Below are positions 14,434 to 23,980 of a stretch of DNA of 64,000 nucleotides, piece after piece; within the stretch, counting starts at the first letter, position 1; each line of letters opens with the position of its first letter. The notes under the pieces are model-generated. The model had not been told where the DNA came from. It did no database searches and worked only from the letters and a program-made list of their open reading frames with translations. A program made the translations under genes and the position numbers. Source of the stretch: Escherichia coli (GTDB lineage Bacteria > Pseudomonadota > Gammaproteobacteria > Enterobacterales > Enterobacteriaceae); assembly GCF_003991155.1 (NCBI RefSeq), contig NZ_CP031293.1; one strand, given 5' to 3'.

Positions 14434-15513
14434 ATGTCTAAGATTTTTGATTTCGTAAAACCTGGCGTAATCACTGGTGATGACGTACAGAAAGTTTTCC
14501 AGGTAGCAAAAGAAAACAACTTCGCACTGCCAGCAGTAAACTGCGTCGGTACTGACTCCATCAACGCCGTGCTGGAAACCGCTGCTAAAGTTAAAGCGCC
14601 GGTTATCGTTCAGTTCTCCAACGGTGGTGCTTCCTTTATCGCTGGTAAAGGCGTGAAATCTGACGTTCCGCAGGGTGCTGCTATCCTGGGCGCGATCTCT
14701 GGTGCGCATCACGTTCACCAGATGGCTGAACATTATGGTGTTCCGGTTATCCTGCACACCGACCACTGCGCTAAGAAACTGCTGCCGTGGATCGACGGTC
14801 TGCTGGACGCGGGTGAAAAACACTTCGCAGCTACCGGCAAGCCGCTGTTCTCTTCTCACATGATCGACCTGTCTGAAGAATCTCTGCAAGAGAACATCGA
14901 AATCTGCTCTAAATACCTGGAGCGCATGTCCAAAATCGGCATGACTCTGGAAATCGAACTGGGTTGCACCGGTGGTGAAGAAGACGGCGTGGACAACAGC
15001 CACATGGACGCTTCTGCACTGTACACCCAGCCGGAAGACGTTGATTATGCGTATACCGAGCTGAGCAAAATCAGCCCGCGTTTCACCATCGCTGCGTCCT
15101 TCGGTAACGTACACGGTGTTTACAAGCCGGGTAACGTTGTTCTGACTCCGACCATCCTGCGCGACTCTCAGGAATATGTTTCTAAGAAACACAACCTGCC
15201 GCACAACAGCCTGAACTTCGTATTCCACGGTGGTTCCGGTTCTACTGCTCAGGAAATCAAAGACTCCGTAAGCTACGGCGTAGTGAAAATGAACATCGAT
15301 ACCGATACCCAATGGGCAACCTGGGAAGGTGTTCTGAACTACTACAAAGAAAACGAAGCTTACCTGCAAGGCCAGCTGGGCAACCCGAAAGGCGAAGATC
15401 AGCCGAACAAGAAATACTACGATCCGCGCGTATGGCTGCGTGCCGGTCAGACTTCGATGATCGCTCGTCTGGAAAAAGCATTCCAGGAACTGAACGCGAT
15501 CGACGTTCTGTAA
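14434..15513 (+). CDS. fbaA: Fructose-bisphosphate aldolase class II, 359 aa
   Basis: ORF 14350..15513 trimmed to MSKIFDFVKPGVITGDDVQK. Confidence 0.95.
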   Translation: MSKIFDFVKPGVITGDDVQKVFQVAKENNFALPAVNCVGTDSINAVLETAAKVKAPVIVQFSNGGASFIAGKGVKSDVPQGAAILGAISGAHHVHQMAEHYGVPVILHTDHCAKKLLPWIDGLLDAGEKHFAATGKPLFSSHMIDLSEESLQENIEICSKYLERMSKIGMTLEIELGCTGGEEDGVDNSHMDASALYTQPEDVDYAYTELSKISPRFTIAASFGNVHGVYKPGNVVLTPTILRDSQEYVSKKHNLPHNSLNFVFHGGSGSTAQEIKDSVSYGVVKMNIDTDTQWATWEGVLNYYKENEAYLQGQLGNPKGEDQPNKKYYDPRVWLRAGQTSMIARLEKAFQELNAIDVL

Positions 15514-15536
15514 GATATTCCTTTCTGCTTATCTCA

Positions 15537-15562
15537 AGGCCCGCTCTGCGGGTCTTTTTTTC
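15537..15562 (+). terminator. Intrinsic terminator after fbaA
   Basis: gcccgctctgcgggtc hairpin followed by a T7 run. Confidence 0.7.
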
Positions 15563-15703
15563 GCCAAAAGCAAGGTGATACAGATGAGAAATCTGTGATC
15601 TATTTGGCAAAATTATGCTTTATTGTTTACCCTTGTCAGACTGCCCGTCATAAGGCGGCGGAGTGTATTTCTCCATTTTGAGTCAGTTGAAAAGGAATAT
15701 TGA

Positions 15704-16564
<861 letters not shown>

Positions 16565-16573
16565 TCAACGCTG

Positions 16574-16608
16574 AGGCCAGATAATACTCTCTGGCCTCTC
16601 TCTTATTA
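16574..16608 (+). terminator. Intrinsic terminator after mscS
   Basis: gaggccagataatactctctggcctc hairpin followed by a T-rich tract. Confidence 0.6.
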
Positions 16609-16702
16609 GTTTTTCTGATTGCCAATTAATATTATCAATTTCCGCTAATAACAATCCCGCGATATAGTCTCTGCATCAGATACTTAATTCGGAATATCCA
16701 AC

Positions 16703-17338
16703 GTGTTTTCTTATTACTTTCAAGGTCTTGCACTTGGCGCAGCTATGATCCTACCGCTCGGTCCACAAAATGCTTTTGTGATGAATCAGGGCATTCGTCG
16801 TCAGTACCACATTATGATTGCCTTACTTTGTGCTATCAGCGATTTGGTCCTGATTTGTGCGGGGATTTTTGGTGGCAGCGCGTTATTGATGCAGTCGCCG
16901 TGGTTGCTGGCGCTGGTCACCTGGGGCGGCGTAGCCTTCTTGCTGTGGTATGGTTTTGGCGCTTTTAAAACAGCAATGAGCAGTAACATTGAGTTAGCCA
17001 GTGCCGAAGTCCTGAAACAAGGCAGATGGAAAATTATCGCCACCATGTTGGCAGTGACCTGGCTGAATCCGCATGTTTACCTGGATACTTTTGTTGTGCT
17101 GGGCAGCCCTGGCGGGCAACTTGATGTGGAACCAAAACGTTGGTTTGCGCTCGGAACAATTAGCGCCTCTTTCCTGTGGTTCTTTGGTCTGGCTATTCTC
17201 GCAGCCTGGCTGGCACCGCGCCTGCGCACGGCAAAATCACAGCGCATTATCAATCTGGTAGTGGGATGTGTTATGTGGTTTATTGCCTTGCAGCTGGCGA
17301 GAGACGGTATTGCTCATGCACAAGCCTTGTTCAGTTAG
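16703..17338 (+). CDS. argO: Arginine exporter (LysE family), 211 aa
   Basis: ORF 16703..17338 with GTG start; matches recalled ArgO (YggA). Confidence 0.9.
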
Positions 17339-17430
17339 GCGCTATCTGATGGAAAAATAAAACAGAGGCGCTAAGCTTGCCTCCAGAGGTCCTGAATTTT
17401 GGGCAAGTCAATTAACACGGAGAGACTAAC

Positions 17431-18171
17431 GTGAAGTTCAAAGTTATCGCCCTGGCGGCATTAATGGGTATTAGCGGGATGGCAGCGCAGGCTAACGAAT
17501 TGCCGGATGGACCGCATATTGTCACCTCCGGTACGGCAAGCGTGGATGCGGTGCCAGACATTGCCACTCTTGCGATTGAAGTTAACGTGGCCGCGAAGGA
17601 TGCCGCTACTGCCAAGAAACAGGCAGATGAGCGCGTCGCACAATACATTTCCTTCCTTGAGCTCAATCAGATCGCGAAAAAAGATATCAGCTCAGCGAAC
17701 TTACGCACTCAGCCAGATTATGATTATCAGGATGGTAAAAGTATCCTGAAAGGCTACCGCGCAGTGAGAACGGTGGAAGTCACGCTCCGTCAGTTAGACA
17801 AACTGAATTCCTTGCTGGACGGCGCGCTAAAGGCGGGTCTTAACGAAATTCGTTCTGTGTCGCTGGGCGTGGCGCAGCCGGATGCCTATAAAGACAAAGC
17901 GCGTAAGGCAGCGATTGATAACGCGATTCATCAGGCGCAGGAACTGGCGAATGGCTTTAATCGCAAACTCGGGCCGGTATATAGCGTGCGTTATCATGTT
18001 TCCAACTATCAGCCCAGCCCAATGGTGCGGATGATGAAAGCTGATGCTGCACCGGTGTCCGCACAGGAAACTTACGAGCAGGCCGCTATTCAGTTTGATG
18101 ATCAGGTCGATGTAGTCTTCCAGTTAGAACCTGTGGATCAACCCCCCGCTAAAACACCTGCTGCACATTAA
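17431..18171 (+). CDS. yggE: DUF541/SIMPL-family periplasmic protein, 246 aa
   Basis: ORF 17431..18171 with GTG start and signal peptide (MKFKVIALAALMGISGMAAQA). Confidence 0.88.
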   Translation: MKFKVIALAALMGISGMAAQANELPDGPHIVTSGTASVDAVPDIATLAIEVNVAAKDAATAKKQADERVAQYISFLELNQIAKKDISSANLRTQPDYDYQDGKSILKGYRAVRTVEVTLRQLDKLNSLLDGALKAGLNEIRSVSLGVAQPDAYKDKARKAAIDNAIHQAQELANGFNRKLGPVYSVRYHVSNYQPSPMVRMMKADAAPVSAQETYEQAAIQFDDQVDVVFQLEPVDQPPAKTPAAH

Positions 18172-18328
18172 TACTTGTAGCCCGACGTATTCGTCGGGCT
18201 AATGTCTTTACCCGATATTGTCTCCTTTTTCTGTAAAACCATGACGTAATCACCTATCTTTGCTCGCGGTTTCATCAAGGATAGGCTGACTGAAACGGTT
18301 AAGCGGACAAGGATGCGGGAGAGGGGGG

Positions 18329-19219
18329 ATGGACATTTTTATTTCGAAAAAGATGCGCAATTTCATTTTATTAGCGCAAACCAATAATATTGCCCGGGCG
18401 GCAGAAAAAATCCATATGACGGCTTCGCGATTTGGCAAAAGCATTGCCGCGCTGGAAGAACAAATTGGCTATACGCTATTTACCCGCAAAGATAATAATA
18501 TCAGCCTCAATAAAGCCGGACAGGAACTGTATCAAAAACTGTTCCCGGTTTATCAACGACTTTCTGCGATTGATAATGAAATCCATAACTCAGGACGTCG
18601 TTCACGAGAAATTGTGATAGGCATAGATAATACTTATCCGACCATTATTTTTGATCAGTTGATTAGTCTCGGAGATAAGTACGAAGGCGTGACCGCCCAG
18701 CCAGTTGAGTTCAGCGAAAATGGCGTTATCGATAATCTTTTTGACCGTCAGTTAGATTTTAATATCTCCCCACAGCATGTATCTGCACGAGTTCAGGAAC
18801 TGGAAAACCTGACTATCAGTGAACTACCGCCGCTGCGATTGGGCTTTCTCGTTTCTCGCCGTTATGAAGAGCGACAAGAGCTGCTTCAGGAGCTGCCCTG
18901 GCTACAAATGCGCTTTCAGAATCGGGCCAATTTCGAAGCAATGATTGATGCGAATATGCGTCCTTGTGGGATCAATCCCACCATTATTTATCGTCCCTAC
19001 AGTTTTATGGCCAAAATCAGCGCCGTGGAGCGGGAACATTTTCTGACGGTGATCCCGCATTTTGCCTGGCGACTGGTGAATCCGGCAACGCTGAAATATT
19101 TTGATGCGCTGCACAGACCGATGTATATGCAGGAATATCTTTATTCAATCAGAAATCATCGTTATACCGCCACGATGCTTCAGCATATTGCTGAAGATCG
19201 TGACGGGACAAACCATTAA
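18329..19219 (+). CDS. ygfI: LysR-family transcriptional regulator
   Basis: ORF 18329..19219; N-terminal HTH, start codon choice (18329 or 18353) uncertain; 3' end abuts the sbm remnant. Confidence 0.8.
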
Positions 19220-20310
19220 CCCAGCATCGATCCGGTTGCAATTAAATTACGGTGTAAGTCGAAGACGTGGCTAAGATCGTGGTGAATATGTCCGCCGGAC
19301 GCATTTTCCAGATAGCGATGCAGATAATCCCGACACATAGGATGTGCACAATGATCAATGGTGGTGCGGATAACGTTGTTATACGGATCCTGTGCGCCAA
19401 ATCCACTGACCGCTTCGCTCCATAAATAACGTGCCGCACGCAACATGGCGGCGTTCATAAACAGATCCATGCCAATGCCGAAGAAAAACGACAGGCGAGG
19501 GACGAAGCCATCAATTTTCAGCCCGGCGGAGATTGCTGCTTTGATGTACTCAATCCTATCGGCGAGCGTAAATGCTACCTGCTGCACGCAGTTGGCACCC
19601 GCTTCACCCATGTGGTAACTGCTGATACTGATGGTATTAAATCGCGGCATGTTGCCGGAACACCAGGCGATGATGTCTGCGATAATACGCATTGACGGTT
19701 TTGGCGGGTAAATATAGGTATTGCGGCAGAGGTACTCTTTGAGGATATCGTTCTGAATGGTGCCGGTCAGTTTATCGGATGTAACACCTTGCTCTTCTGC
19801 GGCGACGATATAAAACGCCAGTACTGGTAGCACTGCGCCATTCATGGTCATAGAAACCGACATTTTATCCAGCGGGATCTGGTCGAACAGGACTTTCATA
19901 TCTTCCACGGTGTCGATAGCGACGCCCGCTTTGCCGACGTCGCCCGCCACGCGTGGGTTATCGGAGTCGTAGCCTCGGTGGGCGGCAAGGTCAAACGCAA
20001 CGGAAAGACCTTTTTGCCCGGCGGCCAGGTTACGGCGATAAAAAGCGTTGGACTCTTTTGCTGTCGAGAAACCAGCATACTGACGGATGGTCCACGGTTG
20101 GGTGGTATACATAGTGGCACGCGGGCCACGAACGTAGGGTGGCAAACCAGGAAGAGTACCCGTCACCTCCAGATTATCGAGATCGGCTTCGGTATACAGC
20201 GGCTTGATAGCGATCCCTTCCGCGGTTTGCTGAACCAGCGAGTCGACAGTTTTCTCCCGACGGCTCAATTCATTGTTGGCAAGCTGTTGCCACACCAGCA
20301 CGTTAGACAT
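19216..20310 (-). pseudogene. scpA: Methylmalonyl-CoA mutase (sbm/scpA) 5' remnant; rest of the operon absent
   Basis: ORF 19216..20331 matches the N-terminal ~330 residues of Sbm from MSNV... ([19 protein letters not shown]...), then diverges and terminates; no argK/scpB/scpC sequence follows. Confidence 0.75.
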
Positions 20311-20512
20311 TATTTGCTCCGTAAAACGCAATCAAAGTGAGGGTATTTGCGCTTACGGTGAGCTTTTTACGTGGGTTTGTCGCCAGCAAAAAAATGCATT
20401 CAGACGTCGTTTTTTGCCGCCTGAGATTTGTCTATTTTGTAATGTGATTCAAGGAATACAAAAAGAAGTGAGGATAACGCCTGATATGTGCTATCAGGCA
20501 TTATTTGATGGA

Positions 20513-21406
20513 TTAATCCTGACGAAGAACTTTGTGACCATAATCGAGCAACGCATCAGTGACTTTACGCATCATGCGGCTTTCAGGAGCAAAGCGGTGC
20601 CAGTAGAGCATCCGGCGTTGGAATAGCCCTGGCGTTAAGTCAATCAGTTCGCCGCTGGCCAGCTCTTTCTCGATTTGCAGGTGCGGGATCATACAGCAGG
20701 TGGTGCCCTGACGAGCAAGTTGCACGAACGCTTCCGAAGAATTAACGATATGGCAGGGTACGCTGCCAGGAGGCAGATCGAAATTTTGCTGCAAAAAGGC
20801 CTGGTGCATATCGTCAAGATGGTCAAACGCGACCACTGGCGCTTTCAGTAATGCCGAACGCGTTACGCCGTTAGGGAAATATTTTTCGGCAAAAGGTTTT
20901 GAGCTGACGAACAGATAGTCGAGCGCACCGAGTTTATCGACAAGACAACTCGGCAGCGCCTGATGTTGAATACTCACTGCGCCGACCACTTCGCCGCGAC
21001 GCAGACGTTCCTGAGTGCGGGTTTCATCTTCTACCTGCAAGTTGAGGCGGATGGGCGAATCAGCCAACACAGGAGCCAGTGCCGGAAGCAACCACGTCGC
21101 CAGACTGTCGGCGTTGACCGCCAGTGAAAGCAGCAGCGGAGTCGAACCGGTTTGTTCATCGCCCAGCCACTCTTCTTCCAGCAGCTCCACCTGGCGTAGT
21201 AGCGCCAACAGTTTTTGCCCTTGTTCCGTCGGGCGCGGCGGTACGGTACGCACTAACAACGGCTGCCCGAACATATTTTCCAGTTGCTTAATGCGCTGTG
21301 AGACGGCTGATTGTGTAATGCACAGCTTTTGTGCCGCGCGCTCAAATCCTCGTTCACGTATCACCGCATCCAGTGCCTGTAATGTTCTGTAGTCCGGGCG
21401 TTTCAT
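20513..21406 (-). CDS. argP: LysR-family regulator ArgP (IciA), 297 aa
   Basis: ORF 20513..21661 trimmed to [28 protein letters not shown]. Confidence 0.92.
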
Positions 21407-21832
21407 TGCTGTTGTCTGCTCCTGGTAAATGCTTTTTCCTGCACTATGACACAATTTTGTGTCGGGTTGCATATACCGAAGCCGTTGGTGGGTAACATTT
21501 GTATCAGTGGTTAACGCGCAGCTTAAAAGATCAGGGATTTGCGCTAATGCATTTCGCTCAGCGAGTTCGCGCCCTGGTTGTGTTGAATGGCGTGGCGTTA
21601 TTGCCTCAGTTTGCCTGTAAACAGGGGCTTGCGAACGGGGAACTGGTGCGCCTGTTTGCACCGTGGAGCGGCATACCCAGACCGTTGTATGCTTTACTTG
21701 CGGGGCGAAAGGGGATGCCCGCCATTGCGCGATATTTTATGGATGAGTTAACCACGCGGCTTGCCAACGGGGTCTGAATCGCTTTTTTTGTATATAATGC
21801 GTGTGAAATTTCATACCACAGGCGAAACGATC

Positions 21833-22492
21833 ATGACGCAGGATGAATTGAAAAAAGCAGTAGGATGGGCGGCACTTCAGTATGTTCAGCTCGGCACCAT
21901 TGTTGGTGTAGGTACAGGTTCCACCGCCGCACACTTTATTGACGCACTCGGTACAATGAAAGGCCAGATTGAAGGGGCCGTTTCCAGTTCAGATGCTTCC
22001 ACTGAAAAACTGAAAAGCCTCGGCATTCACGTTTTTGATCTCAACGAAGTCGACAGCCTTGGCATCTACGTTGATGGCGCAGATGAAATCAACGGCCACA
22101 TGCAAATGATCAAAGGCGGCGGCGCGGCGCTGACCCGTGAAAAAATCATTGCTTCGGTTGCGGAAAAATTTATCTGTATTGCAGACGCTTCCAAGCAGGT
22201 TGATATTCTGGGCAAATTCCCGCTGCCAGTAGAAGTTATCCCGATGGCACGTAGTGCAGTGGCGCGCCAGCTGGTGAAACTGGGCGGTCGTCCGGAATAC
22301 CGTCAGGGCGTAGTGACCGATAACGGCAACGTGATCCTCGACGTCCACGGCATGGAAATCCTTGACCCGATAGCGATGGAAAACGCCATAAATGCGATTC
22401 CTGGCGTGGTGACTGTTGGTTTGTTTGCTAACCGTGGCGCGGACGTTGCGCTGATTGGCACACCTGACGGTGTCAAAACTATTGTGAAATGA
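21833..22492 (+). CDS. rpiA: Ribose-5-phosphate isomerase A, 219 aa
   Basis: ORF 21761..22492 trimmed to [19 protein letters not shown]. Confidence 0.93.
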
Positions 22493-22747
22493 TCTGACGG
22501 GGGAACCTCCCCCGTTAAAAAAATTCTCTTCATTAAATTTGGTGACATGTGTCACGTTTTTACCTGGCAATTGTCGATTGCTCTAAATAAATCCTCTAAA
22601 CCAGCATATTCATCCAAGAAATACTTTTGCGTGATATTTCCTCAACATAGCGACGCAAACGTTCATATTGCCGCAATATTATTTTTTGATATGTTGAAAG
22701 GCGGATGCAAATCCGCACACAACATTTCAAAAGACAGGATTGGGTAA

Positions 22748-23980
22748 ATGGCAAAGGTATCGCTGGAGAAAGACAAGATTAAGTTTCTGCTGGTAGAAGG
22801 CGTGCACCAAAAGGCGCTGGAAAGCCTTCGTGCAGCTGGTTACACCAACATCGAATTTCACAAAGGCGCGCTGGATGATGAACAATTAAAAGAATCCATC
22901 CGCGATGCCCACTTCATCGGCCTGCGATCCCGTACCCATCTGACTGAAGACGTGATCAACGCCGCAGAAAAACTGGTCGCTATTGGCTGTTTCTGTATAG
23001 GAACAAACCAGGTTGATCTGGATGCGGCGGCAAAGCGCGGGATCCCGGTATTTAACGCACCGTTCTCAAATACGCGCTCTGTTGCGGAGCTGGTGATTGG
23101 CGAACTGCTGCTGCTATTGCGCGGCGTGCCGGAAGCCAATGCTAAAGCGCATCGTGGCGTGTGGAACAAACTGGCGGCGGGTTCTTTTGAAGCGCGCGGC
23201 AAAAAGCTGGGTATCATCGGCTACGGTCATATTGGTACGCAATTGGGCATTCTGGCTGAATCGCTGGGAATGTATGTTTACTTTTATGATATTGAAAACA
23301 AACTGCCGCTGGGCAACGCCACTCAGGTACAGCATCTTTCTGACCTGCTGAATATGAGCGATGTGGTGAGTCTGCATGTACCAGAGAATCCGTCCACCAA
23401 AAATATGATGGGCGCGAAAGAGATTTCGCTAATGAAACCCGGCTCGCTGCTGATTAATGCTTCGCGCGGTACTGTGGTGGATATTCCAGCGCTGTGTGAC
23501 GCGCTGGCGAGCAAACATCTGGCAGGGGCGGCAATCGACGTATTCCCGACGGAACCGGCGACCAATAGCGATCCATTTACCTCTCCGCTGTGTGAATTCG
23601 ACAATGTCCTTCTGACGCCACACATTGGTGGTTCGACTCAGGAAGCGCAGGAGAATATCGGTCTGGAAGTTGCGGGTAAATTGATCAAGTATTCTGATAA
23701 TGGTTCAACGCTCTCTGCGGTGAACTTCCCGGAAGTCTCGCTGCCACTGCACGGTGGTCGTCGTCTGATGCACATCCACGAAAACCGTCCGGGTGTGCTG
23801 ACTGCGCTCAACAAAATTTTTGCCGAGCAGGGCGTCAACATCGCCGCGCAATATCTGCAAACTTCCGCCCAGATGGGTTATGTAGTTATTGATATTGAAG
23901 CCGACGAAGACGTTGCCGAAAAAGCGCTGCAGGCAATGAAAGCTATTCCGGGTACCATTCGCGCCCGTCTGCTGTACTAA
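22748..23980 (+). CDS. serA: D-3-phosphoglycerate dehydrogenase, 410 aa
   Basis: ORF 22748..23980; matches recalled SerA including the C-terminal ACT domain. Confidence 0.95.
   Translation: MAKVSLEKDKIKFLLVEGVHQKALESLRAAGYTNIEFHKGALDDEQLKESIRDAHFIGLRSRTHLTEDVINAAEKLVAIGCFCIGTNQVDLDAAAKRGIPVFNAPFSNTRSVAELVIGELLLLLRGVPEANAKAHRGVWNKLAAGSFEARGKKLGIIGYGHIGTQLGILAESLGMYVYFYDIENKLPLGNATQVQHLSDLLNMSDVVSLHVPENPSTKNMMGAKEISLMKPGSLLINASRGTVVDIPALCDALASKHLAGAAIDVFPTEPATNSDPFTSPLCEFDNVLLTPHIGGSTQEAQENIGLEVAGKLIKYSDNGSTLSAVNFPEVSLPLHGGRRLMHIHENRPGVLTALNKIFAEQGVNIAAQYLQTSAQMGYVVIDIEADEDVAEKALQAMKAIPGTIRARLLY

Follow-up and report, generated by a model that had tools for sequence, protein, structure and literature searches.

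A deletion remnant of the sbm operon between srsR and argP, inherited in the phylogroup B2 lineage of Escherichia coli

In the 64-kb stretch of E. coli DNA analysed here (hereafter the window), the sbm operon is reduced to a single open reading frame that fuses the beginning of scpA to the end of scpC, and this chimera is very probably a non-functional remnant, inherited from the B2 ancestor, of deletions between short repeats. In K-12 the operon, scpA/sbm-argK(meaB)-scpB-scpC, provides the 'sleeping beauty mutase' pathway from succinate to propionate (PMC3850637, PMC5512728; for background on the operon and on SrsR see also PMC9181523). The remnant is an old inherited allele of the B2 lineage and not a peculiarity of one strain. 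Its pseudogene status is already known from RefSeq, and it is a case of ordinary lineage-specific gene loss.

Anatomy of the chimeric remnant and its junctions

The E. coli K-12 locus (L002) served as the comparison reference. Around the remnant the gene order is mscS, argO, yggE, srsR (ygfI, plus strand), remnant (minus strand), argP (minus strand), rpiA and serA, and the 8.5 kb at window positions 15200-23700 match strain FDAARGOS_1284 (NZ_CP070170.1) with 0 mismatches. At the same site in K-12, the srsR-argP interval holds scpC, scpB, meaB (argK) and scpA, an operon of 5431 bp. The 5' 917 nt of scpA and the 3' 141 nt of scpC are orthologous in the window, which compared with the K-12 operon is shorter by 4273 and 63 bp and has no meaB, no scpB and no B12-binding domain.

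The minus-strand open reading frame extends over 19216-20331, with its true ATG at 20310, and its product matches K-12 ScpA from residue 1. When the translation of the whole chimera (19216-20310, minus strand; 364 codons plus a stop at 19216-19218) was aligned to K-12 ScpA and ScpC, the order found was ScpA 1-306, ScpA 328-339 and ScpC 447-492, in one open frame throughout. The first part, codons 1-306 of scpA (19394-20310, minus strand), differs from K-12 at 12 amino acids, and four of these changes (Q5L, E6V, K13N and A70T) were found only in the window haplotype among those sampled. Between the two deletions lies a 39-bp island of scpA (19355-19393, minus strand), which corresponds to nt 981-1019 of the K-12 gene and matches L002 8001-8039 at 100% in blastn. 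In all, some 44-47% of scpA survives (codons 1-306 and 328-339 of 714), rather than the 5' third given in an earlier note on this DNA. The last part (19216-19354, minus strand) consists of the final 46 codons of scpC with its native stop and its native 4-bp overlap with the srsR stop, and in tblastn ScpC 443-492 aligns to window positions 19368-19219 with 92% identity. The tail after ..RTTI, taken in that note for divergence, is ScpC residues 447-492, in the scpC frame and ending at the scpC stop, which rules out a frameshifted scpA or random sequence.

The larger deletion, of 4273 bp, takes the 3' half of scpA (its 3' 1128 nt), argK/meaB, scpB and codons 1-446 of scpC. A three-way alignment of its junction (19355-19369) places the crossover in the motif TCAATG (19355-19360), inside a 15-nt imperfect repeat whose copies, TCAATGGTGGTGCGG in scpA and TCAATGATAGTGCGG in scpC, are identical at 13 of 15 positions. 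An identity of at least 13/15 is reached by only 23 of the 14.1 million position pairs in the K-12 operon (1.6e-6), so that this junction appears to have been guided by homology and not to be a chance match. The second deletion, of 63 bp (21 codons), is also in frame. Alignments and gap blocks locate its junction at 19384-19393, where a single hybrid CGG(A/G)TCCTGT is left of a repeat with 9/10 identity and a perfect core TCCTGT, and at the protein level one QDP replaces QDP..QDP. Comparison with K-12 by blastn gave three collinear blocks, the 39-bp island being flanked by 18000-19369, corresponding to L002 2358-3742, and 19384-20998, corresponding to L002 8093-9708. The flanks are collinear, the truncated end genes keep their native order and orientation, and direct repeats are found at both ends of the deletions, with one hybrid copy left at each of three junctions, including that of the further deletion described below.

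This collinear alignment, with its exact junctions, bears out the earlier reading of the locus as a deletion remnant of the sbm operon, and the comparison with K-12 that had been proposed for fixing endpoints and repeats yielded the 13/15 and 9/10 direct repeats. The size of ~5.4 kb quoted for the K-12 operon agrees with the 5431 bp between srsR and argP; the picture of a single loss gives way to two deletions (4273 + 63 bp). Both argK and scpB are missing from the interval as claimed, neither being found by tblastn and blastn of the 64-kb window, and the same holds for codons 1-446 of scpC, which had been reported as missing altogether, although its last ~46 codons remain at 19219-19356. The 3' end of ygfI, said to sit on the deletion junction, is some 140 bp away from it (scpC codon 446/447, at 19355-19360): srsR (2696-3592) and scpC (3589-5067) overlap by 4 bp in K-12 too (L002 coordinates), exactly as srsR and the remnant do here. 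On the other side, the native sbm upstream region was correctly described as retained, the 202-bp scpA-argP spacer (20311-20512, minus strand) being 97.5% identical to its K-12 counterpart across 203 aligned positions; it contains a terminator-like hairpin of argP at 20479-20499. A scan of this 202-bp spacer for the sigma-70 consensus gave no match, which is uninformative since the K-12 operon itself has been described as silent.

The convergent neighbour srsR (18329-19219, plus strand) is intact in the window, where 6 bp near 18874/18875, coding for one EQ of ERQEQELLQE, are missing, and the yggE-srsR spacer is 10 bp shorter than in K-12 at about 18226/18227. Premature stops in srsR were seen in the junction carriers p11A, Eco889, O7:H15 'ST70' and TUM10828, and an independent one in O157:H7 EDL933. 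A 187-kb plasmid record (NZ_CP137739.1) contains, at 80480-81012, 535 bp from the yggE-srsR region under the annotation of a LysR regulator. In the argP-rpiA gap, the window has a short open reading frame (21499-21777, plus strand) that is shared with K-12, is named 'LysR substrate-binding domain-containing protein' (231 bp) in RefSeq and resembles a fragment of a LysR-type gene.

Distribution among complete genomes and later history of the allele

To survey its distribution, we used a query of 161 bp that spans both junctions and had to be covered in one piece, against 5426 complete E. coli genomes. The junction was found in 1113 of them (~20%), the same number as with a 2.5-kb query, and the deleted segment (4258 bp) in 4311, of which 35 cover less than 80% of it. 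The two counts add up to 5424, equal to the count of all genomes that gave some match to the junction-region query, which is consistent with, though no strict proof of, mutually exclusive states in which carriers lack the deleted DNA. An assembly artefact is ruled out by the occurrence of the junction in 1113 independent complete genomes. The junction is also present in one plasmid-labelled record.

Carriers were typed by joining the junction to K-12 arpA or yjaA at E <= 1e-40, a threshold at which matches to half of the junction are dropped. The query with arpA matched 5170 genomes at 5211 places, so that an arpA match is possible in at most 41 carriers and at least 1072 of the 1113 have none; arpA and the junction are both missing from 256 genomes, which is compatible with a lack of the deletion in phylogroups F/G. 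With yjaA, 2663 genomes were matched at 3712 places, corresponding to about 1049 carriers with yjaA and about 64 without. FDAARGOS_1284 itself has yjaA, and its iclR and aceK are immediate neighbours, arpA being absent. In the Clermont scheme, the presence of yjaA together with the absence of arpA corresponds to B2. Named carriers include the known B2 strains O25b:H4-ST131, ATCC 25922, NC101 and an O1:K1:H7 APEC strain, as well as a Nissle-labelled record. Two further carriers, O7:H15 'ST70' (L008) and TUM10828 (L009), are among the ~64 without a yjaA match and are either yjaA-negative B2 strains or something else. By these data the deletion allele would type as phylogroup B2, and it appears to track the arpA-negative, mostly yjaA-positive class almost completely. 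The survey across phylogroups recommended in the earlier note has in this way given 1113 carriers in 5426 genomes and an arpA-negative, yjaA-positive class, an assignment that rests on two of the four Clermont markers and on set arithmetic and that includes ~64 carriers without yjaA.

A full-text literature search found no paper describing the deletion or its distribution in B2, or naming it as a marker. One article lists 'mcmA (methylmalonyl-CoA mutase)' among the virulence factors detected in dog UPEC, with no mention there of the sbm operon or its deletion.

The 4273-bp and 63-bp gaps are identical in every carrier locus that was fetched, nine distinct haplotypes in all. Descendants have acquired further disabling lesions, a 39-bp loss and a frameshift. 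The segment at 19981-20019 (minus strand), kept in the window, is lost in most carriers through an additional in-frame deletion of 39 bp, whose repeats are GG(T/C)GGCAAGG and GGCGGCCAGG; it is missing from 946 of the 1113 carriers (85%), the window being among the 15% in which these 39 bp persist. Comparison of the window with L003-L005 and L009 revealed two hybrid versions of the repeat, GGTGGCCAGG and GGCGGCCAGG, and this deletion may be recurrent or may have occurred where the background was polymorphic. The frameshift, a +1 change with a stop at codon 94, is found in DETEC-P836 and KKo003.

One record was excluded from the analysis. At all 90 sites that differ between ATCC 25922 and K-12 over 3.1 kb, EcN_Sk (NZ_CP172017.1, L014, 1-3120) has the K-12 base, and yet it keeps the 4273-, 63- and 39-bp deletions; such a K-12-type remnant with B2 deletions is probably an artefact of polishing or of the reference used, the alternative being an unusual conversion of SNPs only. 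In another strain, ES4 (NZ_CM184348.1, L019, 3847-6603), the same operon has decayed independently on a K-12-like background, with the 3' part of scpA, meaB and part of scpB deleted and an internal stop in scpC.

Loss of function and tests of selection

The chimera lacks ScpA residues 307-327 and 340-714. Of the 512 positions of the Pfam model MM_CoA_mutase (PF01642) it matches only 1-291 and 302-316, so that no complete catalytic (beta/alpha)8 domain is present, and a Pfam search of the chimera found no C-terminal cobalamin-binding (B12-binding) domain. In the 64-kb window, tblastn with K-12 MeaB and ScpB found neither, ScpC was matched only at 443-492, ScpA had no match beyond the remnant, and blastn with the deleted segment gave no match. 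With roughly 40% of the mutase barrel missing, all of the B12-binding domain absent and the three partner genes lost, the locus, as judged from its coding content, cannot support the conversion of succinate to propionate, and we infer that the chimeric remnant is non-functional. The earlier statement that the strain is without this pathway holds insofar as the enzymes are not encodable from the locus; it describes no single strain, ~20% of complete genomes being alike in this respect.

In FDAARGOS_1284, whose sequence here is identical to the window, RefSeq/PGAP annotates a pair of pseudogenes (I6K14_RS04015 and I6K14_RS24890), a 'methylmalonyl-CoA mutase family protein, missing C-terminus' and an 'acetyl-CoA hydrolase, missing N-terminus'. 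This annotation splits the open reading frame into two overlapping partial pseudogenes and records neither the single in-frame chimera nor the 63-bp deletion. Elsewhere the exact 364-aa product is named 'methylmalonyl-CoA mutase family protein', on at least 1000 contigs.

Among carriers, dN/dS calculated pairwise by the Nei-Gojobori method ranged from 0.19 to 0.34 and at first suggested constraint. This test was dropped because carrier sequences form a mosaic that includes alleles of intact genes: at 19 sites variable among carriers, both alleles occur in non-carriers too, in block patterns. In its place, carrier-private mutations were counted against a spectrum-matched neutral expectation. 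Mutations private to one haplotype comprised 9 nonsynonymous and 4 synonymous changes, with 10.0 nonsynonymous expected (P 0.35), and those present in fewer than n-1 carriers 18 and 12, with 21.5 nonsynonymous expected (P 0.11). The full set of carrier-private mutations, 20 nonsynonymous and 17 synonymous against an expectation of 26.2 nonsynonymous (P 0.02), is confounded by recombination, being contaminated with changes that predate the deletion and with alleles imported from intact genes. Singletons of the intact gene, used as a control, comprised 4 nonsynonymous and 9 synonymous changes, with 8.2 nonsynonymous expected (P 0.014). No nonsense changes were seen where about 1 was expected (P ~0.4), which is uninformative. 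The youngest mutations of the remnant fit neutral decay, and the older synonymous excess is most simply variation that predates the deletion or was imported, weak constraint on the remnant being possible.

These data bear on whether the in-frame ScpA'-'ScpC chimera has been kept by selection, either as a new protein, for example a small CoA-ester-binding protein, or because translation to the scpC stop would matter for the 3' end of the convergent srsR, through an effect on the overlapping srsR transcript. Such a translated frame, kept open through the whole history of B2, would explain why all three deletions preserve the frame, a coincidence with a chance of ~1/27 if frames were random and a point against decay, why the frame is open in 8 of the 9 distinct carrier haplotypes, why the older carrier-private variants are short of nonsynonymous changes (P ~0.02-0.03), and why the exact product recurs on so many contigs. 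We nevertheless consider it unlikely. The barrel breaks off at model position 291-316 of 512 with no B12-binding domain to follow, the internal losses of 21 and 13 codons fall in the same domain, and one sublineage retains the frameshift with its stop at codon 94. Furthermore, the haplotype-private mutations agree with the neutral expectation, the lack of nonsense mutations carries no information, and the visible recombination with intact alleles accounts for the synonymous excess. As for an effect on srsR, that gene itself has premature stops in many carriers, and the scan of the upstream spacer found no sigma-70 consensus promoter.

Origin and significance of the remnant

Deletions between short direct repeats arise by RecA-independent illegitimate recombination or by replication slippage. 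The scars described here, with 6-nt perfect cores inside imperfect repeats of 10-15 nt, resemble such deletions, and it is from these scars that we infer the mechanism. In an ancestor of phylogroup B2, short-homology (illegitimate, slippage-type) recombination at the sbm operon would have joined the scpA copy of the 15-nt repeat (codons 335-340) to the similar scpC copy (codons 442-447), with the loss of 4273 bp that held the 3' half of scpA, argK/meaB, scpB and 90% of scpC. Slippage at the 10-nt repeats would also have removed 63 bp just upstream, in the same event or in a separate one. Both changes presumably kept the frame by chance, leaving a stump read through to the native stop of scpC. 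Later drift of the allele includes recombination with intact alleles, the loss of 39 bp more in most B2 genomes and the frameshift in one sublineage.

A single origin of this kind has to be weighed against the possibility that the same deletions arose repeatedly at repeat hotspots. In the remnant, carriers differ from one another as much as the species does overall, natural haplotypes showing up to 28 differences per kb, and the two hybrid repeat versions at the 39-bp deletion could reflect recurrence. This diversity, however, is arranged in blocks, as is typical of recombination; two linked junctions and an identical 39-bp island are shared by every sampled carrier, no intermediate with a single deletion was seen among ~47 sampled non-carriers, and by marker the carriers fall into a single class, which lacks arpA and mostly has yjaA. 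Taken together, these observations make repeated origin very improbable. A further reading, in which the short allele came first and other phylogroups gained the operon by insertion, would agree with the presence/absence polymorphism alone and is already refuted by the anatomy as read from the sequence, since an insertion cannot make truncated scpA 5' and scpC 3' ends in the right order and orientation with a hybrid repeat at each junction.

Inheritance from a B2 ancestor places the remnant beside a precedent. The absence of arpA is a lineage-defining gene loss of B2 that is used in Clermont phylotyping. The remnant allele is similarly lineage-wide, in ~20% of complete genomes, but includes the ~64 carriers without yjaA.

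Nothing in this history is surprising to a specialist; its consequences are practical and modest. The B2 lineage, which holds most extraintestinal pathogens (ST131, ST73, ST95) as well as NC101, would have no B12-dependent Sbm route from succinate to propionate, and metabolic models or engineering plans copied from the K-12 pathway would not apply to B2 strains. The shared junction offers a clean, PCR-sized marker for arpA-negative, yjaA-positive genomes. Finally, the locus provides a natural example of the stepwise erosion of a pseudogene by short-repeat deletions, in which recombination blurs the signal of relaxed selection.
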